Shown: positions 1 to 12,524, counted from the stretch's first letter. The stretch: 15,311 bases of DNA from Escherichia coli (GCF_003334815.1 NZ_QOWO01000056.1); one strand, 5' to 3'. Notes: generated from the sequence alone by a model not told the origin. Made by a program: numbers and translations.

Positions 1-2
1 AC

Positions 3-1174
<1,172 letters not shown>

Positions 1175-1376
1175 CGAAAGTATCTTAGCGGGCATGAAAA
1201 TGGCAAATAACGGTCAAACATCGTGGCGTTGACATTCTGGCTGGAAGTATCGAGTACACGCTCGTAAGCGGCCCTCACGGCCCGCTAACGCGGAGATACG
1301 CCCCGACTTCGGGTAAACCCTCGTCGGGACCACTCCGACCGCGCACAGAAGCTCTCTCATGGCTGAAAGCGGGTAT

Positions 1377-1590
1377 GGTCTGGCAGGGCTGGGGATGGGT
1401 AAGGTGAAATCTATCAATCCGTACCGGCTTACGCCGGGCTTCGGCGGTTTTACTCCGGTATCACATGTAACCACAGCGTGCCGCCTTACATGCCGCTGAA
1501 GCGGCATTCAGTAGACAGGCTATGCACGACTCGCCAGTCTGGCCTGAACATGATATAAAATGAATATAAATAGACAGAATAGGGTTATTT
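1377..1590 (+). repeat. Copy 1 of a diverged ~200-bp direct repeat (structured leader-like element) upstream of the 294-aa gene
   Basis: Matches 9636-9834 by hand alignment: the first 61 nt have 5 mismatches, starting GGTCTGGCAGGG..GGGTAAGGTGAAA..GTACCGGCTTACGCCGG; a second block (TATCACATG..GTGCCGCCTTACATGCCGCTGAAGCGGCAT) is about 84% identical. Weaker similarity continues to the start codon. Copy 1 carries about 21 extra bp (GCTTCGGCGGTTTTACTCCGG). Confidence 0.7.
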
Positions 1591-2475
1591 ATGGATTTAT
1601 ATCACTTTACAGCAATTCCTATGTTGCATTCCATACTTGCATCTGAAGGCCTGAGAGAAGGATATCTAACGTTGTATGATGGAACAATTTTGTATAATAA
1701 AGTATGGTTAACGACATCTCCATTACCATATGGTCACGGATTATGTAACGGTACTGAAAAATTAAGTGAATCAGAAAAATCATTTATGCGAAGAGTCGGT
1801 AATATATCTGAGTCTACGTCTATAAATGGAACACATAATAAAAAGTTAATAAGGTTAAAAATAGATACTGAATGGATAAAAAAGCAGCCTGGATTTTGCT
1901 CATATAAAAAGCTGATGCGTGACCTTGGACAACCTAAAGCTTATGTTAAGTACGTAGGTGCAATGGGGGTTGAGGGGGCAAGGGGGATGACCGATGAGCA
2001 GATAAGTAAAATTATGCGAAAAGGTAACACAAAAGAAGATACCTGGTATATCTTTAATGGGGTCATCCCACCTTCAAAAATAGTCTCTGTTGAATATATG
2101 GAAACTAAAGATAAATATATACCATATGATTTTGAATTGCATGGAAGGGGATATATAGAAAACTCCGGCATTTATCCGATTTCGAATTTATTATTATCTG
2201 ATCTGAATCATACAATGCGAAATATTACATTTTTACCAGGTTCTGTCATAGCGTTTTGTCATAAAGCAAATTCAGAAGAAAATATTTTATTCAGACATGT
2301 ATTATTCACATGTTCAATCTCCTTGAGAAATTTTTCAGTACTGATAGCAACAGGTGATGAGACATCTTTCTATATTCATCTGGATGTATTAAAAAGTTGG
2401 ACTCAAAAAAACAGTAAAGTACTATGCCAACTTTTTGAAAAAGCACGTGAAAGTTACCACAGATACTATGGTTAG
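1591..2475 (+). CDS. Hypothetical protein, 294 aa, AT-rich, function unknown
   Basis: Long ORF in strongly AT-rich DNA with Lys/Asn/Ile-rich codon usage, unlike the flanking IS and backbone. No motif recognised with certainty. The N-terminal LYHFT..SIL..GL pattern is faintly reminiscent of ART-fold (DarT/DUF4433-like) N-termini, but downstream motifs do not obviously match. Confidence 0.6.
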   Translation: MDLYHFTAIPMLHSILASEGLREGYLTLYDGTILYNKVWLTTSPLPYGHGLCNGTEKLSESEKSFMRRVGNISESTSINGTHNKKLIRLKIDTEWIKKQPGFCSYKKLMRDLGQPKAYVKYVGAMGVEGARGMTDEQISKIMRKGNTKEDTWYIFNGVIPPSKIVSVEYMETKDKYIPYDFELHGRGYIENSGIYPISNLLLSDLNHTMRNITFLPGSVIAFCHKANSEENILFRHVLFTCSISLRNFSVLIATGDETSFYIHLDVLKSWTQKNSKVLCQLFEKARESYHRYYG

Positions 2476-2824
2476 AAACCACTGCGGGGAGAACATCAGT
2501 GGCACAAAACTAGACCGCCCGGAACCGGGACGCTTACTGATGGACAGTCATCGCAATGATATCTTGCTGGTTGAGCAGATAGGGGCTCCGTGGGAATTTC
2601 TGCGATAACACCCGCTAAGCGATTTCTCCCTGACGGAAATCACTTGTTTTTCGTTCAGAGGCAGGCAAGAGGAATATTCATCCCCAAAAACGGCGTTTTC
2701 ATATGCGGAAAACGCTGCCGGATAGTCGAATAGTACGACAAACTGACTTCTGACGTTTTCCGTACATTTCAGATTCAGTAACCCCGAATATTTGGGGTTG
2801 GTATGGCTAACGCCTTGAATTTCA

Positions 2825-2977
2825 ATGAACAATATTTTGTTACCGTGTACTGTCGCAGAAATGCCCACGGAACCCCTACTTGGACAGCATGTACTTTATG
2901 AAGTGAATGATGAGGCCAGTCGTGTCAATATCCTGGCGGTTGTAGGCCAGCGTCAGAATCCCCGATTCATTCTTTGA
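2825..2977 (+). pseudogene. Possible remnant of a RelE/ParE-family toxin (C-terminal half only)
   Basis: A 50-codon ORF ends ..GQHVLYEVNDEASRVNILAVVGQRQNPRFIL*, resembling the RelE/ParE C-terminal core (compare RelE ..GYRLVYQVIDEKVVVFVISVGKRER..). No matching N-terminal half was found in any frame upstream. Confidence 0.3.
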
Positions 2978-3012
2978 GTGTCCGGCTTGGAACTCCATCT
3001 TCAGAGAATCGA

Positions 3013-3678
3013 TCAACGTTCTTTAGCTCCTTCCACTAACAGCCGACCTATCTCAAACACCGCAGCTGACCGTCCCGACTTCACCGCTTCGGCTTTCTGT
3101 CCCTCAACAAACCAGTTATTACCGTCCGTTCGGACCAACTCAAACATCCATGACATATCGTAAACGTGTTCCGGGATCAGCGACCCTTCTCCGGCCAGAA
3201 TACCCGCCGTTATGGAGTGGTTGCCCCCGTGCACAAAGCCAATACGCCAGGGCAACCACAGGTCAACATAGTGGTTGTTTTTATCTTGCTTCCACGGCTT
3301 CCCCTTATGGGTTCCAATGCGTGAAACGTTATCGATATAGCGTGGTAGGCTCCAAGGCCACGGCAGCACTATGTCGCTTGCCAGCGACAACGGATAATCA
3401 GCGCCGTTCATCTCACACTCTTTCATCTTTTCGTAAGATTGTATTTGGGTAAGTCCCTTAAAGAAGAACTCCTGCGGGGTCATATCCGGGCGGGCATCTG
3501 TTCCCTCCTCAGCTACCGCCAGCAAGAAATCACTCTGTACTGGCCGCACGATAGCGCGAATGAGATCTGGTAGCGCCTTAACGGGTAGTTTCTCTGCCAC
3601 AGAAAGCAGATGATTGAAGCGTTTTTTTTCATTGGCTATAGTTGCTTTATCTTTCTTGTTTCGGTTCCAGAACATCAC
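3013..3678 (-). CDS. Hypothetical protein, 221 aa, function unknown
   Basis: ORF with a strong upstream Shine-Dalgarno (TAAGGAGGG about 9 nt before the GTG/ATG start); Trp-rich segment PWPWSLP..DLWLPWRIGFVHGGNHS; no family recognised. Convergent with the 294-aa gene. Confidence 0.6.
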   Translation of the reverse strand: MMFWNRNKKDKATIANEKKRFNHLLSVAEKLPVKALPDLIRAIVRPVQSDFLLAVAEEGTDARPDMTPQEFFFKGLTQIQSYEKMKECEMNGADYPLSLASDIVLPWPWSLPRYIDNVSRIGTHKGKPWKQDKNNHYVDLWLPWRIGFVHGGNHSITAGILAGEGSLIPEHVYDMSWMFELVRTDGNNWFVEGQKAEAVKSGRSAAVFEIGRLLVEGAKER

Positions 3679-4247
3679 TGTCTGTAGCCCTCCTTATCGT
3701 GATCAGGATGATGGTTTTCATTCTAATGGTGTAGTAGTTTCACGTCACGCGCACGTGCATATTCTTCGAAAGCTTCGGCGTTAGCCGGTCAACCAGGGGT
3801 TTGAGGCCCAACCGTACGAGATCGTACGCTAAGTTCATTTTTTGAGCAGAAGAGGTGAGTAAAGAAAACGAGGGTTTTGTTTACTCTTCCCGTCAATGCC
3901 AGTAGCCATGCGGTTTCAGGGACTTTCAGTGTTAATAAACTCGGTAATCAAATCAACGTAAACCTGCCTAACAACGCCACGACTTTATTGACTTAAAATC
4001 ATATAGTTAGCTTCTTAGCGTACGTTTCCGCTCCATTGGGCTTCAAACCCCACACCCAATGACATGAGAAAAGCTGGATCTGATTCTCAAAATGCTGGGA
4101 TACCCATCGAGATGGAGAACTCAGTCAATGTTCCATTCTTTCTGAAATATGTGTGGGGACACTGATCTGTCGGGAGCCGGATGCGGTAGTTCCGCAGGTC
4201 CGGTTCTGAGGAGGGGCCCGTCCGGGCAACCGGCGGGTCTACTCACC

Positions 4248-4811
4248 TCATCCCCCTACAACCACTCCCATTCGTTTAAGTATTTTTAAACCTGCTTCCT
4301 GTGGTATCTTTATAGATAAGATCCTGTTTATCTCAGGATTTATATCGAGACCTTCTGTCATTGAAAAATCACAGTGAGACAAATCAGAATGTCTGAACTC
4401 TGTATTATTAAACTCCGAACCAGTAAAATCAGATTTACGAAGGTCTGTTTCCTCAAATAAACAATCACGGAAGCGACAGGATAAAAAAATAGATTTCTGT
4501 AACCGTAAACTAATAAAATCAACAAATCTCAAATCACAATTTACAAGAGAAAAAGTACAGGGAAACATAATGTCTGCTGCATTTACTCCTTGTAATAAAC
4601 AATCTTTGAATTCACAGTCAATAAGTTTAAAAAAATTAAGTTTTAAATTCTTTATTGAGCAGTTTACGAAGCGACATTTTTCGAACTCACAATCGCGAAA
4701 GTTAAAGTTGTCAAGCTGTATTCGTTCAAATATACAATTGTAATAATTTACACCTGATAATTCACTTTCACTGAGGTGTCGTTTTGTGATTCTTTTTTCT
4801 ATTATATCCAT
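4248..4811 (-). CDS. mcbG: Microcin B17 immunity protein McbG (pentapeptide-repeat, Qnr-like gyrase protection), 187 aa
   Basis: Last gene of the mcb operon by position; length matches McbG; pentapeptide-repeat character visible (CIFERIQLDNFNFRDCEFEKCRFVNCSIKNLKLNFFKLIDCEFKDC..). Confidence 0.92.
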   Translation of the reverse strand: MDIIEKRITKRHLSESELSGVNYYNCIFERIQLDNFNFRDCEFEKCRFVNCSIKNLKLNFFKLIDCEFKDCLLQGVNAADIMFPCTFSLVNCDLRFVDFISLRLQKSIFLSCRFRDCLFEETDLRKSDFTGSEFNNTEFRHSDLSHCDFSMTEGLDINPEINRILSIKIPQEAGLKILKRMGVVVGG

Positions 4812-4814
4812 GTG

Positions 4815-5546
4815 TCAGTCTCCTGTTCCCATAACTTCTTTAATAAATGCCTTTTCTGGAGTTGTTTCATTATTGGATTGAATAAAATCACTCATATCAG
4901 AATAACGATTTATACTATTTTTTGAAAGCATATAGAAGGGGATTTTATCTCTTGTTAATTCATCAAAAATATGAGTTGAGAAAAATACCGTTTTCCCGTC
5001 AGCGGTGATCTTATTTATCAGTTCCCATAACATCATTCTGTACTGAATATCAATGCCTACAGTTGGTTCATCCAGTAAAAATAAACGGGCATTTTTGCAA
5101 AGCGTTAGCATCAAAGATATGATAAGCCAACGCTTCTCTCCATAACTTACCGTGTAAGTCCTTTTACGTCTTATTTTATCATAGCGAATGAAAAAATTAT
5201 CATTCCATTTATGATTAAGCTCTGTCCATGCCTGTTTTTTAGTTAACTTATTGAAGCAGCAAATCAAATCAAGAACCTCCTCATTCCTTAGTGTACCTGA
5301 AAGATTTATGACTTGAGGTAGACTTACTAATTCTCCACCAGAGAAATTTCGCTTGAGGGTCCCTTCATAATTACTGACTCCGCCCCTGATAAGGTTAAAA
5401 AGAGTGGTCTTCCCGGCTCCATTTTCTCCAAGCAGACCTATCAACTCTCCCTGCTCAATCTTAAGCGACAGATTATTGAAAACAGGGGGTAAATTTACTT
5501 TATATGAAAAGCTCAGAGAGTTGATTTCTAAAAGAGGTATGGTCAT
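4815..5546 (-). CDS. mcbF: Microcin B17 export/immunity ABC transporter ATP-binding protein McbF
   Basis: Walker A GENGAGKTT, ABC signature-like FSGGE, Walker B LFLLDEPT; 4-nt overlap with mcbE (ATGA) suggests translational coupling. Confidence 0.92.
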   Translation of the reverse strand: MTIPLLEINSLSFSYKVNLPPVFNNLSLKIEQGELIGLLGENGAGKTTLFNLIRGGVSNYEGTLKRNFSGGELVSLPQVINLSGTLRNEEVLDLICCFNKLTKKQAWTELNHKWNDNFFIRYDKIRRKRTYTVSYGEKRWLIISLMLTLCKNARLFLLDEPTVGIDIQYRMMLWELINKITADGKTVFFSTHIFDELTRDKIPFYMLSKNSINRYSDMSDFIQSNNETTPEKAFIKEVMGTGD

Positions 5547-6268
5547 TGAGAACTCCAGACTGGCTCAGTTTTGAAGGTTAGTGCTGAAATAATACTTATG
5601 ATTAACATTATACTATAGAAAAATATCGTCATCAGAGACAACTCCTGGTCTGACTGGAGTATTGTAGAATAGATGGCGATAGGATTAACCTGATTTATCC
5701 AGTAAACGATCCCCTCATTATATTTTAATGATACAATTCCTGATACCATACAGACAGTTATTAATACAGAATAGATAGTGCTGGCTGTTTGGAATGTGAC
5801 TCTGAACGATGCCATGAAAGTGAGTGAAACCATCATAAATGCATTTATGTATATCGATTTTAAAATAATCATTACTATTTGATAATCTGGACTTGCCTGG
5901 AATCCTGTTAGTACGACTAAAATGAAAAAAAACACATACAAAATAGACATGATAAGTGAGGCTATTAATTGAGAACGAATAAATAATAGTCGACCATCCA
6001 TATTATGCACGAAGGTAGCAATAAAACCACTTTCTCTTCTTCCGACCAGATACAGACAGTAATTAAACAGAACAACAGAAAAAGAAATGTAGCCTACAAA
6101 CCATGATATTTGTTTTCCGAGCCATGCTGTATCACCATAATGAAGTTCAATTTCATTGAAATGAAGGAAAAAGAACAACACTGTAGGTGACATAATTGTC
6201 CATATTAAGCTGAAAGGGGTTCTGATTTGTTCCATCAGAAAAATTATCGCCATTTTTAATGTAACCAT
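5543..6268 (-). CDS. mcbE: Microcin B17 export ABC transporter permease McbE, 241 aa
   Basis: Highly hydrophobic multi-pass membrane protein of the correct length, positioned between mcbD and mcbF. Confidence 0.9.
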   Translation of the reverse strand: MVTLKMAIIFLMEQIRTPFSLIWTIMSPTVLFFFLHFNEIELHYGDTAWLGKQISWFVGYISFSVVLFNYCLYLVGRRESGFIATFVHNMDGRLLFIRSQLIASLIMSILYVFFFILVVLTGFQASPDYQIVMIILKSIYINAFMMVSLTFMASFRVTFQTASTIYSVLITVCMVSGIVSLKYNEGIVYWINQVNPIAIYSTILQSDQELSLMTIFFYSIMLIISIISALTFKTEPVWSSQ

Positions 6269-6277
6269 TTGTTATCC

Positions 6278-7468
6278 TTATGGGAATGGTACCATCTTTG
6301 ATTCTCTGACTTTAATACCGTCCCCGGTATGGTAAATTTTATTATTAATGTTTATTGCACCTGAGTTATTCATATGAAGGAAAAAATCAGGGCTTACTAT
6401 TTTTGTGTACCAGACAAGGCTGTTACTTACTCTTTCCCTGGCATAGTAAACAAAAATATTATCAGAAATTTGTTGAAGATAGTTTAATAAATTTGTGTCT
6501 GACGTAATATTTTCCTCAAGCGTTAACTTGACATCATCAGACAGTAGTACCGTATTTTCACACAAATCCGTAAACGACTCGTACTTGTTGCATGACATAA
6601 AGTGACGCTGGTAACTATCAATAATGTCATCATCAGTATAACCGCCAATAAGAAAGTTGTGCAGGCATATATACGATTGCCACAATTCCACTACGGATTT
6701 ACAAAGTGCTTTTTTCAGACTATTAGCATAGGATAATCCGGTACTGTATTTTATTCGACTGATTTTGTTTTTTGTGCCATACAGGGTTAGTACTGCGTGT
6801 CCAGGAGCTCCGGGCAGGGTGATATCGAAAATCCTGATATCTCCTTCTGACCTGAGAGCCAGTAAAATCTCATCTATATGATTTATGCCTGTTACTATTT
6901 CACTGGATATTTCAGTATTGGCTTTTCCCTGTAACCAGTAAAGAAGGAGGGACTGTCTCTCCATAAATTCACACAAGGAACCTTCTATGGCATCGTTCAA
7001 ACTACCATGAAAGCTACATCCGCATGTATCTCTGTCAGGATAAAATTTCAGATCATCTGCAGCGGTTATATTGTCGAGTGCAATTATGACTGCAGGTATT
7101 TCTTGTTGTTCAAGGCTAAACAGATTAAAGGCTCTGACCGTTTTAAATTTATGGGTTATGATTTCATCGCGGGTCAGTGATGAGATCTGAAAAAATGCTT
7201 CGGTAAAAGCCTTTGCAGCAGATGGAGGCATCATCTCATATAATGTTTTCTGACCACCGGTGACTATCTCATTAAAAAAATGACGGCGTTCAAAATATTC
7301 ACCTATTGCCCCCTGAATTGACTTCAGAGTTTCACCGGCCGCGCTGGCTGGTGTAATACGCTCATAGTCCCATATCTGAGAAAACGTTGGCATATTTCTG
7401 TTCAGTTTTGGACTCATGGCCATTGTGGCCGGCCATGCGGACATAAGGTTACTGTAGACATTTATCAT
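6278..7468 (-). CDS. mcbD: Microcin B17 synthetase YcaO-type cyclodehydratase McbD, 396 aa
   Basis: Position and length match McbD of the mcbABCDEFG operon; start overlaps the mcbC 3' end by 20 nt. Confidence 0.92.
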   Translation of the reverse strand: MINVYSNLMSAWPATMAMSPKLNRNMPTFSQIWDYERITPASAAGETLKSIQGAIGEYFERRHFFNEIVTGGQKTLYEMMPPSAAKAFTEAFFQISSLTRDEIITHKFKTVRAFNLFSLEQQEIPAVIIALDNITAADDLKFYPDRDTCGCSFHGSLNDAIEGSLCEFMERQSLLLYWLQGKANTEISSEIVTGINHIDEILLALRSEGDIRIFDITLPGAPGHAVLTLYGTKNKISRIKYSTGLSYANSLKKALCKSVVELWQSYICLHNFLIGGYTDDDIIDSYQRHFMSCNKYESFTDLCENTVLLSDDVKLTLEENITSDTNLLNYLQQISDNIFVYYARERVSNSLVWYTKIVSPDFFLHMNNSGAININNKIYHTGDGIKVRESKMVPFP

Positions 7469-8267
7469 CGTTTACATCTCCAAAAAACTGAACGATCAGT
7501 GGCGCTACGGTCCTCTGATCCAGATTCATTGTTTTTGCTACGTATGAATCGGTATATCCCGCCCATACCCGGTTTTTCAGTCCTATTTGATCTGCAACCA
7601 ATACTGCGTTCTGATACATCGAACCTGTTTCCATTAAGGCCATCCGGTATCCTCTGTAGCGATATTTGAACAAAGCTTTTTCAAAAATAATGCAATAGAC
7701 GAGAGCAAAATGGGGTTTACCAAGACGTTCCGAATCCCCACCGGACAGGCTTCGGTAGAGTGACTGAGTATTACATGTAGCAACAGGTTCCAGTGCCTGA
7801 CTTAGCGGCAGGTAGTGATAAACATTAGTTCCTGCCTGCCAGTTTTCTGTATTTTCAGATAATCTGCATAAAAAAACTTCAATCGGGTACAATGCCCCCC
7901 CAGAAGGATAAGGTCTTCTTACAGAGCCAGGATCAGGTGAGCTGAATGCATTGACTAATAACTTTTCAATAGTACGAATGGAAAGTTTATTTTTGTCGCA
8001 AAAGTTTATTCCTGATGGGAGCCTTTCACGACTAAAATTATGTGATGAGGATATGTTTATTACGGAGCTGAAACCTGGCCTGAAGAGAACTTCTTTATTT
8101 TCAAATTTCTCCAGATGGGCAAGAGGTACCGCGGACACGAAAGTTCGTTCAGCAAATTCGGGGAGGGAAGCAAAGTTACCTCTGACATGAAAATCTTTAA
8201 CAATGGCCAGAACTTCAGGATCTGTGTAATGCGTTACTTCCACTAAAGAGAGTTCGTGTTTTGACAT
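7449..8267 (-). CDS. mcbC: Microcin B17 synthetase FMN-dependent dehydrogenase McbC, 272 aa
   Basis: Position and length match McbC; immediately follows mcbB with a 1-bp gap. Confidence 0.92.
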   Translation of the reverse strand: MSKHELSLVEVTHYTDPEVLAIVKDFHVRGNFASLPEFAERTFVSAVPLAHLEKFENKEVLFRPGFSSVINISSSHNFSRERLPSGINFCDKNKLSIRTIEKLLVNAFSSPDPGSVRRPYPSGGALYPIEVFLCRLSENTENWQAGTNVYHYLPLSQALEPVATCNTQSLYRSLSGGDSERLGKPHFALVYCIIFEKALFKYRYRGYRMALMETGSMYQNAVLVADQIGLKNRVWAGYTDSYVAKTMNLDQRTVAPLIVQFFGDVNDDKCLQ

Positions 8268-8268
8268 G

Positions 8269-9156
8269 TTATCTCTCCAGACAGCTGCAAGCCTGCCAGT
8301 GAATTACCGGCTCTTTACATAAAATACTGGTGATTAAATCAGCGCTAACAGATGACATAAAGTTATCGACATGACTTTTAACCAGTGAAGTACCTGTCAA
8401 CTCCTGAAGTCGCCGTTTTATTAAATGATAGCTGAATCCTCTTTCTGATTCGCCTAAAGCCAATGCTGGTAGTGTCATTTGGTATTTTTTCAGTAACTGA
8501 AGTAAGTTTGCCCAGGACATTTCGTTACGTCTGAAGCTTTTTTCTTCCCTGCTCAGCCATCTCTCTATATGACAAAAATGGCAGGGAGTACCAAGATCAG
8601 GTGAATATACTCCATCTATCCTGAATGACTCCTTTAGGTAGTAGCTTTGGATGAAGGCAACACCAGGGTTACTTTCAAATTTTGAATAGATTCTTTTTAC
8701 AATGTCTGAATGATAGTTTTCGAGATGTAACCAGATTAGTGTTGAATCGCTCACATTAATATTATTATCTTTTATATCAATGATATGAGAAACAAAAACA
8801 CCATCAGATTTCCATTGTTCCCGGGCATTACTGAAAAGATGTGGAACATCGCTTATTATGACTGAGTTTACCCAGAGAGGTGATGTTTTCGTTTTATTTA
8901 TCACGCCTGTGGTAATAAGAAACTCTTTGCCCTTGTCTTTATCAATAAGCGATTCGTCCAGTAGTTTATCAAGGAGGTATTCAGAAATAATACCCTGTTT
9001 GGATCGTAGGCTTTCGAGTACTTTTTTCATTCCCTCATGTGTAATGTCTACTGAAGAAATGTAGGTAATAAGCAGGGTCTTTGTATTTCTGGAAATTATC
9101 TCAAATGGCAGAATATTGATCATATCTTTTCCTTTTTTAATATCAGGGAGCACCAT
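8269..9156 (-). CDS. mcbB: Microcin B17 synthetase zinc-binding scaffold/cyclodehydratase subunit McbB, 295 aa
   Basis: Position and length match McbB; Cys/His clusters (..PCHFCHIERW.. and C-terminal ..HWQACSC..) are consistent with a zinc tetrad. Confidence 0.92.
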   Translation of the reverse strand: MVLPDIKKGKDMINILPFEIISRNTKTLLITYISSVDITHEGMKKVLESLRSKQGIISEYLLDKLLDESLIDKDKGKEFLITTGVINKTKTSPLWVNSVIISDVPHLFSNAREQWKSDGVFVSHIIDIKDNNINVSDSTLIWLHLENYHSDIVKRIYSKFESNPGVAFIQSYYLKESFRIDGVYSPDLGTPCHFCHIERWLSREEKSFRRNEMSWANLLQLLKKYQMTLPALALGESERGFSYHLIKRRLQELTGTSLVKSHVDNFMSSVSADLITSILCKEPVIHWQACSCLER

Positions 9157-9164
9157 GCTCCCTG
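9144..9164 (-). promoter_or_regulatory. Hairpin in the mcbA-mcbB intergenic region sequestering the mcbB Shine-Dalgarno, with the AUG in the loop
   Basis: Minus-strand RNA reads 5'-CAGGGAGC-AUGGU-GCUCCCUG-3': a perfect 8-bp stem whose 5' arm contains the AGGGAG ribosome-binding site, with the mcbB start codon in the 5-nt loop. Confidence 0.5.
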
Positions 9165-9182
9165 AACGGTTAATTCAACGTA

Positions 9183-9380
9183 TCAGATATGTGAACCACT
9201 TCCGCCGCTGCCACCGTTTCCACCACTACAACCGTTGCTGCAACCACCACAACCGCCACCTTGACCACCGCAGCTACCGCCGCCACCACCACCAATGCCA
9301 ACACCTAATGGAGACTGGCGTGATAATTTAAGAGCATCAACGGACAAAACTACACCAAATTCACTCGCTTTTAATTCCAT
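9183..9380 (-). CDS. mcbA: Microcin B17 precursor peptide McbA (65 aa in this copy)
   Basis: Translation MELKASEFGVVLSVDALKLSRQSPLG|VGIGGGGGGSCGGQGGGCGGCSNGCSGGNGGSGGSGSHI is the McbA leader plus Gly/Ser/Cys-rich core. Shine-Dalgarno AGGAG lies 5-6 nt upstream. Confidence 0.95.
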   Translation of the reverse strand: MELKASEFGVVLSVDALKLSRQSPLGVGIGGGGGGSCGGQGGGCGGCSNGCSGGNGGSGGSGSHI

Positions 9381-9600
9381 AAGGACTCCTTTTTTAAGGG
9401 AAATTAATGCTTATGACATCTGAATAGTATGTTGGCCAACACTAGTTACTTGCCGTAATTAACTATATTTTGCAATGATAATTTGAACTAAATTTGTACG
9501 CCTGTTAAATATTTAATAATAATATCAGTTGGTTATGTTTGTGTGGTTATTGTTTTTTTACAAAAATTAATATTGTGTTTACATTTTGCTTTCAGTTGCT
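9381..9600 (-). promoter_or_regulatory. Putative mcb operon promoter region (Pmcb)
   Basis: About 220 bp of very AT-rich non-coding DNA directly upstream of mcbA. The mcb operon is known to be driven by a stationary-phase, OmpR-dependent promoter upstream of mcbA. Exact -35/-10 not assigned. Confidence 0.45.
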
Positions 9601-9635
9601 GTCAGGATGTCACACTACCCCTTTAAGCCCCCACT

Positions 9636-9834
9636 GGTCTGGCAGGGCCGGGGGTGGGTAAGGTGAAACCTGTCAATCAGTACCGGCTTACGCCGGTATC
9701 ATATGCAACAACTGAGTGCCGCCTTCCATGCCGCTGGTGCGGCATATCCTGGTGACGATATCTGAATTGTTATAGATATGTATATACGTAGTAATGACAA
9801 GAATAGGATAAGTTAAAAATTTACAGGAGATGCA
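9636..9834 (+). repeat. Copy 2 of the diverged ~200-bp direct repeat, upstream of the small membrane protein gene
   Basis: See copy 1. Conserved hairpins CCGGCTTACGCCGG and ATGCCGC-NNNN-GCGGCAT (loop TGAA in copy 1, TGGT in copy 2, stem identical). Confidence 0.7.
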
Positions 9835-10131
9835 ATGATTCAGACACGTAATCAATATCTGCAGTTTATGCTGGTTATGCTGGCTGCATGGGGCATTAGC
9901 TGGGGAGCCAGATTTGTCATGGAGCTGGCCGTTCTGCTTTATGGGCCAGGAAAAAACTATTTGTTCTTCAGTCATGGTGCTGTTCTGATGTACCTGCTGT
10001 GTGTTTTCCTGGTATACCGCCGTTGGATAGCTCCACTACCGGTCGTTGGTCAGCTGCGCAACGTTGGCGTACTGTGGCTGGTCGGTGCGATGGCCGTGGT
10101 GTATATCGGTGTATTTCTGCTCGATCGATAG
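9835..10131 (+). CDS. Small hydrophobic membrane protein, 98 aa, about 3 predicted TM segments, function unknown
   Basis: Good Shine-Dalgarno (AGGAG 5 nt upstream); three hydrophobic stretches (FMLVMLAAWGISW, AVLMYLLCVFLVY, VLWLVGAMAVVYIGVFLL); GC-rich codon usage in contrast to the adjacent mcb genes. Confidence 0.6.
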   Translation: MIQTRNQYLQFMLVMLAAWGISWGARFVMELAVLLYGPGKNYLFFSHGAVLMYLLCVFLVYRRWIAPLPVVGQLRNVGVLWLVGAMAVVYIGVFLLDR

Positions 10132-10175
10132 GAATATTCCGGCAAGTGTCATCTGTATTTAAAGGTCGTGTGAGT

Positions 10176-10628
10176 ATGAAATTTATGGAATGTGCTGTCC
10201 GGGATGTGATTTATGGGACCAATGTCCGTATTGTCAAACCGGTCAACATTTATGAATGTGAACTCAGGGACAATGTGTTTGTCGGCCCCTTCGTTGAGAT
10301 ACAGAAAGGCTGTGTCATTGGTAGTGGAAGCCGGATACAGTCGCACACGTTTATTTGTGAGAACGTAACACTGGGGGAGAACTGCTTCATTGGTCATAAC
10401 GTGACGTTCGCCAACGATCTGTTTCGTTCAGGAGCACCAGATCCGTCACCGGATAACTGGATCAGCATTACCCTGGGGGATTCGGTTACTGTTGGCAGTG
10501 GAGCCATTATTCTGTCTCCGTATATATGCAGCGGAGCTGTTATTGGTGCGGGTTCAGTTGTGGTAAAACCGATTGAGAACAAAGGCATTTATGCAGGAAA
10601 CCCGGCAAGACTGCTCAGAATATTATGA
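10176..10628 (+). CDS. Hexapeptide-repeat (left-handed beta-helix) acyl/acetyltransferase, about 150 aa
   Basis: Repeated [LIV]-G-x-x-x-x hexapeptide pattern and the characteristic C-terminal ..IGAGSVVVKPIENKGIYAGNPARLLR. The track ORF 9999..10628 has an implausible N-terminal extension overlapping the membrane protein gene; the ATG at 10176 (MKFMECAV..) is the likely start. Confidence 0.75.
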   Translation: MKFMECAVRDVIYGTNVRIVKPVNIYECELRDNVFVGPFVEIQKGCVIGSGSRIQSHTFICENVTLGENCFIGHNVTFANDLFRSGAPDPSPDNWISITLGDSVTVGSGAIILSPYICSGAVIGAGSVVVKPIENKGIYAGNPARLLRIL

Positions 10629-11031: not shown

Positions 11032-11385
11032 TTAGTTTATTAACTTCATCGCATTCTTTTTTGTCTCCTCATCACTTTTTTGCTCCGATTGTGAAGAGGA
11101 CTGAATGATTGTTGAAGAATTTAAATCGGCCATCTCTTTTGGAAATAGCGATCTCAATATATTCACGATATCTGAAAATGTGGTTTCTTTCGTCAGCAAT
11201 TCACATAAAAGGAAAGGGGCCCTGGGATCTTGTCTGTATAAGGCCAGACCTGCCGTCAGTGCAGCCCGGTTAAGGCGGCTGCGTTCCCCTTGCGGGATAC
11301 TGTCCAGTGTATCACAAACAATTTTATCTGTTTGATTTACATCTGGATTTAGCTTAAAGGCAATGGTTCTGCGCTTGTCCATCAT
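11032..11385 (-). CDS. parR: Plasmid partition centromere-binding adaptor ParR (StbB), 117 aa
   Basis: Translation [50 protein letters not shown].. is recognised as R1/R100-type ParR; TAATG stop/start overlap with parM. Confidence 0.9.
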   Translation of the reverse strand: MMDKRRTIAFKLNPDVNQTDKIVCDTLDSIPQGERSRLNRAALTAGLALYRQDPRAPFLLCELLTKETTFSDIVNILRSLFPKEMADLNSSTIIQSSSQSEQKSDEETKKNAMKLIN

Positions 11386-12347
11386 TAATTACCTATGAGA
11401 TACATACCGTTAACTAAATCATATTGAGAGTTATTGGTTTTAAAAAAACGTTCATCACGAATCTGTGTGTTTTTTTTTACTGCATCGCATATTAATTCTG
11501 CGCCACCACCTATAACCATAACATGAGTATAACCAGAAAATTCATTGAGTGTATTTAATACACGTTGCTCAAGTTTACGAAGTGCTTCATTCATTGCTTC
11601 GGTGACTATTGATATTTTGTTCTCATCATTAATTCGTTGCTTCAGATAGTTATTATCTTTTCTGTGAATAATTATATCGTCAGCAAGATAGCTACTTCCT
11701 TTTGTTCTCGCAAGAGAAAGGGCATCTTTTACTGCAGATGTGACCAGAGATACACCAAGAGATGAGTCTCCGTATATTTTACTGATCCCCGATAATTTCC
11801 CCATTACCTGAGAAATATCTAATGTGGTGCCCCCGAGATCTATAATTAATAAAGAATCTAACTCATCCAGTTCTTGTAGAACTTCATAACCTGCCGGTAT
11901 AGATTCAGGCATGACTTTTACATCTTTTATTGTGAATGCATCCCCACCATTTAATGTAATTTTTTTCCGGAAGTTTGCTTTCTTACGCTCAATATTTTCC
12001 GTATTGGGTTGGTTATTCCTGTCGTAATACTCTGTCAGAGGAAGTGTGCAAACAATATCCACTTCACTTACCGGCAGGCCACTGGTCAGTAAGGCGTGGT
12101 GCACCGCAACGACATTAACGTCGCTGTATTGCCATGCGATATTGGTTGTGACTACAGCATCCGGGCTGATTGGATCAAATGAATACTGTTCGCCGTTCAG
12201 TGTGTAGTTAAAGACCTTTTTATCACCAAAAGAAACTGCCCACTCGCGTTTGAAGCTGTTCGGGCTAATGTGCTGTTTAATTGTTCCGTCGCTTTCCTGC
12301 CACTGTAGTTTGATGTTTGTTGAACCGTCATCAATGAATACCAACAT
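11385..12347 (-). CDS. parM: Plasmid segregation actin-like ATPase ParM (StbA), 320 aa
   Basis: Translation [36 protein letters not shown].. is recognised as R1-type ParM (actin fold, 320 aa); Shine-Dalgarno AGGAG upstream. Confidence 0.95.
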
Positions 12348-12362
12348 TTATAAAACTCCTTA

Positions 12363-12515
12363 TGGTGTTTTTTTTGGTGTTTGTTTGGGTGTGTTTTGGG
12401 TTTTAAGTGGGTTTATTTGTCAAGTTTACCCCATTTTAACTATCAATCAATGATTATTTGTCTTGTTTTGGTGTTTTATTGGGTTTGGCGTGGGTTGTTT
12501 TTGGGTTTTGTTTGG
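12363..12515 (-). repeat. parC: parC centromere: two clusters of five 11-bp iterons flanking the par promoter
   Basis: Directly visible 11-bp direct repeats ending in TGG/GGG (TGGTGTTTTTT, TTGGTGTTTGT, TTGGGTGTGTT, TTGGGTTTTAA, GTGGGTTTATT, then a ~43-bp spacer, then TCTTGTTTTGG, TGTTTTATTGG, GTTTGGCGTGG, GTTGTTTTTGG, GTTTTGTTTGG). This is the known R1 parC architecture. Confidence 0.8.
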
Positions 12516-12524
12516 CGGATAACA

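Follow-up and report, generated by a model that had tools for sequence, protein, structure and literature searches.

Two diverged hairpin-bearing repeats around the microcin B17 genes of an Escherichia coli plasmid are alleles of the IncFII post-origin segment, probably its primase start signal

The window analyzed here, a 15,311-nt stretch of Escherichia coli DNA (GCF_003334815.1 NZ_QOWO01000056.1), carries the microcin B17 operon (mcb) and, on either side of it, two diverged direct repeats with hairpins, copy 1 preceding a gene for a 294-aa protein and copy 2 preceding what a preliminary description had taken for a small membrane protein gene (Table 1). The repeat pair is real: a repeat search of the window returned 1376-1437 versus 9635-9696 with 92% identity over 62 nt and confirmed a second block, 1450-1507 versus 9688-9745, with 84% identity over 58 nt; the two regions align by blastn at E = 4.5e-26. 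Alignment with MAFFT places a 21-nt indel between the two blocks, which had been read as an insertion in copy 1, but nucleotides 1438-1458 have their counterparts in R100, F, and all other homologues, and it is copy 2 that carries a deletion, falling between CCGG repeats. The hairpins CCGGC-TTAC-GCCGG (H1a) and ATGCCGC-loop-GCGGCAT (H2) lie where they had been placed, those of copy 2 at 9683-9696 and 9728-9745, respectively. The earlier count of two was incomplete, however, since a long-range stem (P4, 1443-1447 with 1481-1485) had been overlooked, the 5' arm of which copy 2 lacks. Likewise, the left bound of copy 1 is not 1377, as the conserved unit reaches at least to 1340 and the backbone homology to 1235. 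Beyond H2, the AT-rich tails are indeed weakly alike up to the two ATGs, with a local score of 18 compared with 10.7 +/- 1.9 for shuffled sequences (reached by 4 of 2000 shuffles, ~p = 0.002).

Both copies match one and the same single-copy stretch of plasmid R100. Nucleotides 1235-1507 are 94.9% identical to R100 (L003 10247-10519), and 9635-10123 are 91.4% identical to R100 (L003 10388-10897), the alignment continuing into tir (blastn in either case). The segment 1235-2582, with the 294-aa gene included, is 99.3% identical to plasmid F, where it follows RepFIC repA. More than 5000 plasmids in PLSDB match 1235-1507 at 90-99%, mostly conjugative IncF plasmids of Escherichia, Klebsiella, Shigella, and Salmonella, with the homology starting at 1235. 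We regard it as essentially certain that both repeats represent the IncFII post-origin segment, which extends from the 3' end of repA4 to the region upstream of tir; the earlier view that they match no known element was mistaken, both copies being allelic forms of the conserved segment with which the IncFII-family basic replicon ends on the right. Judged by its sequence, copy 1 represents the F/RepFIC allele, still followed by the gene native to it, so that the 294-aa gene belongs to the F backbone and lies outside the mcb module; by the same token, copy 2 is the R100-type allele with its natural neighbor tir, of which the supposed small membrane protein gene is a 5' fragment.

Table 1. Features of the window bearing on the two repeats; positions are counted from the first nucleotide of the window.
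Feature	Position	Strand	Basis or remark
Copy 1, complete conserved element, assigned to the F/RepFIC allele	1340-1515	-	nhmmer profile; alignment A2
H1a of copy 1, CCGGC-TTAC-GCCGG	1424-1437		93% of cells paired
H1b of copy 1, alternative hairpin CGCCG-GGCTT-CGGCG	1432-1446		overlaps H1a and P4
P4 of copy 1, GGCGG 1443-1447 pairing with CCGCC 1481-1485	1443-1485		encloses a 33-nt variable A/T-rich loop
H2 of copy 1, ATGCCGC-TGAA-GCGGCAT	1490-1507		conserved replicon ends here on the right
Proposed primase start motif of copy 1	1373-1398	-	bottom strand CCATCCCCAGCCCTGCCAGACCATAC, CTG at 1386-1384
AT-rich tail of copy 1, to the ATG of the 294-aa gene (1591-2475)	1508-1590	+	layout as in F
Copy 2, probable relic, assigned to the R100 type	9635-9745	-	91.4% identity to R100, running into tir
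AT-rich tail of copy 2, natural tir upstream region of R100-type plasmids	9746-9834	+	contiguous alignment with R100 L003 10388-10897
5' fragment of tir (98-aa ORF; CPBP/CAAX-family membrane protein)	9835-10131	+	R100 homology stops at 10123
IncFII backbone left of the element, corresponding to the 3' half of the R100 repA4 ORF region (L003 10247-10351)	1235-1339	+	blastn
Right part of an IS21-family element (istA 3' end to 377; istB 374-1174)	1-1234	+	ends ...GTTGACA at 1234

The element is present twice because the plasmid is a mosaic of F-like and R100-like backbones, the two copies reflecting a mosaic of replicon ends that arose by recombination between related IncF plasmids and by deletions. 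Copy 2 is truncated at its 5' side, the counterpart of 1340-1375 being missing or unrecognizable, and has nothing left of ~9618-9635, where the mcb promoter region abuts. Its 21-nt internal deletion takes out the 5' arm of P4 together with the alternative hairpin H1b; kept are CCCTG (CAGGG at 9643-9647 on the top strand), H1a, an orphan 3' arm of P4 (9719-9723), and H2. Lacking an adjacent origin and being one stem short, copy 2 is probably a relic. In plasmid pEcoUTI1d, a third allele, itself complete, occupies the repA-proximal place and is directly followed by a toxin-antitoxin pair, a DUF6710 gene, and the mcb operon; the relic of that plasmid is shortened further, being cut at the position of window nucleotide 9729 with loss of H2.

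The place of the element is best seen in R100, where the repA stop at L003 9670 is followed by the DnaA box TTATCCACA at 9847, the AT-rich origin extending to ~10032, two inverted ter-like sites with GTTGTAAC cores (~10075-10093 and ~10207-10230), the element itself at ~10352-10527, thus to the right of oriR and of both ter sites and ~720 nt past repA, and finally tir at 10609. Scanning one genome per species with R100 RepA yielded 33 loci with RepA identities of 74-97%, among others from Klebsiella, Lelliottia, Pantoea, Erwinia, Citrobacter, Mixta, Izhakiella, Yersinia pestis, Hafnia, Serratia, and Salmonella arizonae; a protein homology search with RepA returned close relatives only and added no diversity. 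A profile of the element (nhmmer) matched ~26 of the 33 loci, from about a dozen Enterobacterales genera, and in these ~26 replicons it always lies on the repA strand, 715-750 nt past the repA stop. In the window itself, the left neighbors of copy 1 have been replaced by the insertion sequence (IS) ending at 1234, and copy 2 has none. Conservation ends a few nucleotides past H2 in most lineages (alignment A2), and the next open reading frame (ORF) varies by lineage (tir, the 294-aa protein, ParA, a 311-aa protein, and others), its start being 43 to more than 1000 nt off. No ORF is conserved across the element in the homologues, single-nucleotide indels are common, and the ATG of a 46-aa 'hypothetical protein' ORF occurs only in R100/F-type alleles. 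With the distance to repA fixed, the next gene varying, and no ORF conserved, we conclude that the element belongs to the replicon and is non-coding. The tie to the downstream genes that had been proposed is thus not borne out by the homologues.

These findings also bear on the idea that the repeats are structured 5' leaders (riboregulators, attenuators, or targets of small RNAs) transcribed with, and controlling, the 294-aa gene and tir. A start codon does follow each copy after an AT-rich tail of 83-89 nt with residual homology, and H1b plus its T-run looks terminator-like in R100/F-type alleles, but the T-run is absent outside these types, the element keeps its distance to repA rather than to the next gene, the downstream ORFs are unrelated, and conservation in most lineages does not go beyond H2. 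Moreover, Rfam gave no match at either copy (E <= 1), a scan for sigma-70-like promoters revealed none ahead of either copy from which a leader could be transcribed, and tir retains a relic that is one stem short and, in pEcoUTI1d, is also without H2. In view of the unrelated downstream genes, the lack of an Rfam match and of upstream promoter-like sites, and the decay of copy 2, the leader reading is not supported, and we consider it very unlikely.

A 128-aa ORF at R100 L003 10033-10419 corresponds to the ORF named RepA4 in the sources (UniProt 'Uncharacterized protein repA4'). In NR1/R100, repA4 runs across the two ter sites into the element, covering its left part, CAGGG included, with the covarying hairpins located to the right of its stop codon. 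The ORF is not conserved in other genera, from which we conclude that the constraint acts on the DNA. Transposon-directed insertion-site sequencing (TraDIS) of pEC958, the RepFII of which is 99% identical to R100, placed repA4 among the elements required for maintenance, where transposon insertions are not tolerated (PMC4398462).

The claim that the hairpins are selected structures holds: over 24-26 homologues, the stems stay paired by way of compensatory changes while the loops drift. For the three helices H1a, P4, and H2 in alignment A3, 92% of the cells are paired, compared with 29-55% when the partners are slid against each other, and changes on both sides are seen in 6 pairs across the three helices, a number reached by 0 of 500 shuffles. 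Compensatory variants of H1a are GCGGC/GCCGC in Hafnia and CCCGC/GCGGG in C. braakii. For P4, the alleles are GGCGCCA/TGGCGCC, GGCGG/CCGCC (R100, F, and copy 1), and GGTGCCA/TGGCACC, with a loop of 28-34 nt among homologues. H2 forms without mismatch over 6 bp or more in 22 of the 26 homologues (shuffled sequences: 1.2 of 26 on average), from at least six different stem sequences (ATGCCGC, ATGCGCC, ATGCGC, ATGACGC, TGTGCCGC, and CTTGTC), with both-sided changes in 4 of its 7 pairs and unconstrained loops of 3-6 nt. H1b, on the other hand, is 99% paired yet invariant, so that covariation is uninformative here; in R100/F-type alleles it is followed by GTTTTACT, giving the terminator-like match mentioned above. 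By DNA folding energy, single copies surpassed shuffles only moderately, with z values of -2.2 to -2.6 (-4.65 for the complementary-strand origin, oric, of phage G4). For the leader reading it should be added that folded RNA would account for the stem covariation, too.

The most conserved block of the left part is the near-invariant CAGGG (1384-1388 in copy 1; 9643-9647 in copy 2), which reads CCCTG on the bottom strand (alignment A2), such that the order on this strand is 5'-H2, P4, H1a, 37 nt, CCCTG-3'. In plasmid R1, both ter sites lie between the minimal origin and the leading-strand start, and replication is unidirectional and clockwise (PMC10331603). Since the orientation of the ter sites and this report give the direction of replication, the bottom strand would be the leading-strand template. 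To compare the surroundings of CCCTG with the primer-start sites of G4-like phages, a 26-nt weight matrix was built from 20 distinct IncFII bottom-strand sites anchored on CTG, and every CTG of the phage genomes was scored. The CTG at the annotated primer start of G4 (RNA primer 3970-3997, origin 3998) ranked first of 181, with a score of 14.5 versus 7.2 for the next best, and the corresponding site in the G-H intergenic region of alpha3 ranked first of 243 (21.9 versus 1.1). Column-permuted matrices did as well on the phage sites in 10 of 500 cases. The Hafnia allele CTGCAAAGCCAAA is identical to G4 over 13 nt, and the Yersinia allele reads CTGCAAAGCTAAA at this position. With G4, alpha3, and St-1 oric, the element shares a template strand bearing three stem-loops 5' of the CTG at which primase starts and a start motif composed of a pyrimidine tract, then CTGCnAAGCC, then an A-run. 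Overall homology is absent, the stems differ in size and order, and the G4 oric acts on a packaged single-stranded DNA genome, in contrast to an IncFII element residing within a duplex theta replicon after helicase unwinding. A blastn search of the G4 oric against the phage collection matched only phages at least 90% identical.

A separate observation was made in RepFIA of plasmid F, in the reported F ssiA region upstream of the oriS DnaA boxes (L042 2560-2620): its likeness to the IncFII element is confined to one 10-mer, CAGGGCGAAG, which agrees fully with the IncFII consensus surrounding the proposed start. Read on the bottom strand, this 10-mer is part of a hairpin (GGGC-TTC-GCCC) with TG behind it, and the site scores low with the weight matrix.

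Leading-strand synthesis reportedly starts ~380-400 bp downstream of oriR (Masai & Arai 1989; Bernander et al. 1992), and the conserved CAG of R100 (10396-10398) lies ~365-370 bp from the right end of oriR. The R1 'G site', or ssiA of R100, is reportedly the primase-dependent leading-strand priming signal downstream of oriR (Masai & Arai 1989; Nomura et al. 1991; Bernander et al. 1992). From its position, strand, hairpins, and start motif, the element probably is this site, a start signal for DnaG primase on single-stranded DNA. The two have in common the replicon family, the side of oriR on which they lie, rightward of both ter sites, their spacing from oriR (~365-405 bp versus the published 380-400), a conserved CTG on the leading-strand template, and stable hairpins; unlike the G site, copy 2 is truncated and originless, and copy 1 has been cut off from oriR by the IS. 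We envisage that RepA would open oriR, upon which DnaB would unwind the duplex rightward; the bottom strand of the segment would then turn single-stranded, allowing H2, P4, and H1a to fold, and DnaG may start an RNA primer at the near-invariant 5'-CCCTG-3', copying rightward through the hairpins as at the G4 complementary-strand origin. Homology, the constant position with respect to repA, the covariation of the stems, and the likeness of the start motif to the phage sites are observed here, whereas priming as such, the exact start nucleotide, and the bottom strand as the active one are inferred.

Several points weigh against this assignment. The window alleles (CTGCCAGACCATAC and CTGCCAGACCAGTG) fit the phage motif worse than those of Hafnia and Yersinia, and they did not rank high in the reverse test with a matrix made from the two phages; the profile hidden Markov model of the element (A2, nhmmer) found no homology in the G4 genome at E <= 100. 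The hairpin nearest to the CTG is 37 nt away, compared with 3 nt in G4, and a second, non-conserved CTG occurs 2 nt past H1a in R100 and copy 2 (~403 bp) that would likewise fit a start at about 400 bp; it is absent from copy 1. All stems being perfect palindromes, pairing does not tell which strand folds, or whether it does so as DNA or RNA. Within the window, moreover, the IS21-family element parts copy 1 from oriR. Finally, our equating the element with the G site draws on its position, its motif, and background literature.

We have also considered another role at the DNA level, be it in the stability function of the repA4 region or multimer avoidance, as a protein-binding site, or in lagging-strand or conjugative complementary-strand priming instead of a leading-strand G site. 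A role of the repA4 region in stable inheritance has been reported (Jiang et al. 1993, cited in PMC4398462), the sequences of H1a/H1b and of the P4 arms are near-invariant, as expected of protein contact, and the bottom strand would, to judge from the orientation of the leading-region genes, be the transferred strand as well. Yet both the match to the phage start motif and the location with respect to oriR and ter speak for primase priming in particular, and the covarying stems H2, P4, and H1a are more in keeping with single strands folded on themselves than with a binding site in duplex DNA, which makes such a role quite improbable.

A number of further identities were tried and rejected. The element is not part of the minimal oriR, as the DnaA box and AT-rich origin of R100 lie ~360 nt further left, nor a ter site, as the GTTGTAAC cores are left of it and none is inside. 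Protein coding, either by the 46-aa ORF or by the repA4 tail, is dismissed because start codons and reading frames are not conserved. Hairpin-forming single-strand initiation signals are known on plasmids in the form of phiX174-type PriA (n') sites and Frpo-type single-stranded DNA promoters. AAGCGG-like hexamers of the PriA type occur in copy 1 at 1270, 1368, and 1497, but AAGCGG is not conserved among homologues, R100 having ATGCGG, for which reason a PriA-type site was discarded. An Frpo-type promoter of the leading region is rejected as well, since the element adjoins repA/oriR, lies outside the leading region, and lacks a long imperfect hairpin carrying -35/-10 boxes. An intrinsic terminator is ruled out because H1b plus GTTTTACT is limited to R100/F-type alleles and deleted in copy 2, the T-run being absent in other genera. 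The ends of an IS or transposon, or a target-site duplication, are not compatible with direct repeats of 111-132 nt that differ by 8-16% and have no linking inverted repeats. The only transposase genes near the repeats belong to the unrelated IS21-family element ending at 1234.

A further suggestion was that mcb inserted by recombination at the repeats, whether these serve as site-specific sites or as hot spots, the duplication being a by-product of capture. Part of this stands. The right mcb junction falls inside the element, 8 nt from the conserved CTG (bottom strand), the identical mcb/copy 2 junction recurs in ~105 plasmids, and variable cargo all begins directly behind H2. Breaks and partial duplications of the element are found elsewhere as well: in Klebsiella (L007 4540-4910, L031 4618-4986) and P. 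stewartii (L017 4569-4899) its left part occurs twice, with a shared insert of ~150 nt that starts CTACCGTGTT directly after the conserved CAG / GTCTGG and lies between the two occurrences, and in Enterobacter (L021 4566-4877) there is a second partial copy of the hairpin-bearing right part. What does not stand is the duplication upon capture, as the copies are diverged by 8-16% and stem from F-type versus R100-type lineages instead of a fresh duplication. No terminal inverted repeats, short target duplication, or associated recombinase gene were found, the left junction between mcb DNA and F backbone is at ~2582 and not at copy 1, and the third allele that forms the left copy in pEcoUTI1d points to replicon swapping by ordinary homologous recombination. 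We therefore leave a small probability for a hot spot, on account of the rearrangements recurring inside the element elsewhere, and hold capture through the repeats to be unlikely. Equally doubtful is a combined view, according to which the start region would also be a recurrent breakpoint for joining cargo and orphan copies on the presumed transferred strand would be kept for complementary-strand priming in the recipient.

As for the surroundings, istB matches NF038214 at E = 3e-90, and the translated left end of the window is IstA-like. The insertion point of the IS21-family element lies 17 nt rightward of where R100 has terRR, so that at least 1.2 kb come between the putative leading-strand start on one side and the ter sites and origin of RepFIC on the other. 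The truncated tir is overlapped, and then followed, by an ORF for a hexapeptide-repeat acetyltransferase (9999-10628). Exactly at the end of F homology (2582), the left junction of the non-F DNA, starts an inverted repeat (2580-2618 / 2840-2878) with 39-nt arms that are 82% complementary and 221 nt apart, resembling a miniature inverted-repeat transposable element; a second, similar pair lies at 3796-3833 / 4014-4051. The segment 2885-4107 is missing from the closest plasmid, CP057670.1, and present in many other mcb plasmids. It carries a DUF6710-family gene (3013-3678, minus strand), which in relatives adjoins a RelE/ParE toxin-antitoxin pair, and looks like part of an ancestral mcb-linked module. 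Abutting the mcbG stop, 4172-4247 (plus strand) matches the Rfam group II intron model (domain V/VI) with 34.4 bits, below the gathering score of 40 (E = 0.0012), and perhaps represents what is left of an intron 3' end. Directly upstream of parM/stbA (minus strand, 11385-12347) lie T/G-rich repeats (12357-12519; period 11 nt) that resemble the centromere iterons, of parC type, in the R1/R100 partition system.

Taken together, the repeats are a long-known component of the replicon, present twice for historical reasons, and what appeared as puzzling structured repeats is explained as ordinary plasmid anatomy. This keeps one from following a false lead, be it to a novel riboregulator or to a novel site for the capture of the microcin B17 module. 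As a by-product, a comparative picture of the IncFII post-origin element emerges, with three covarying stems and a G4-like primase-start motif. This picture could be useful for annotating the right boundary of IncFII replicons, which annotation pipelines now leave blank or label 'hypothetical protein', and for recognizing relic replicon ends in mosaic IncF plasmids.

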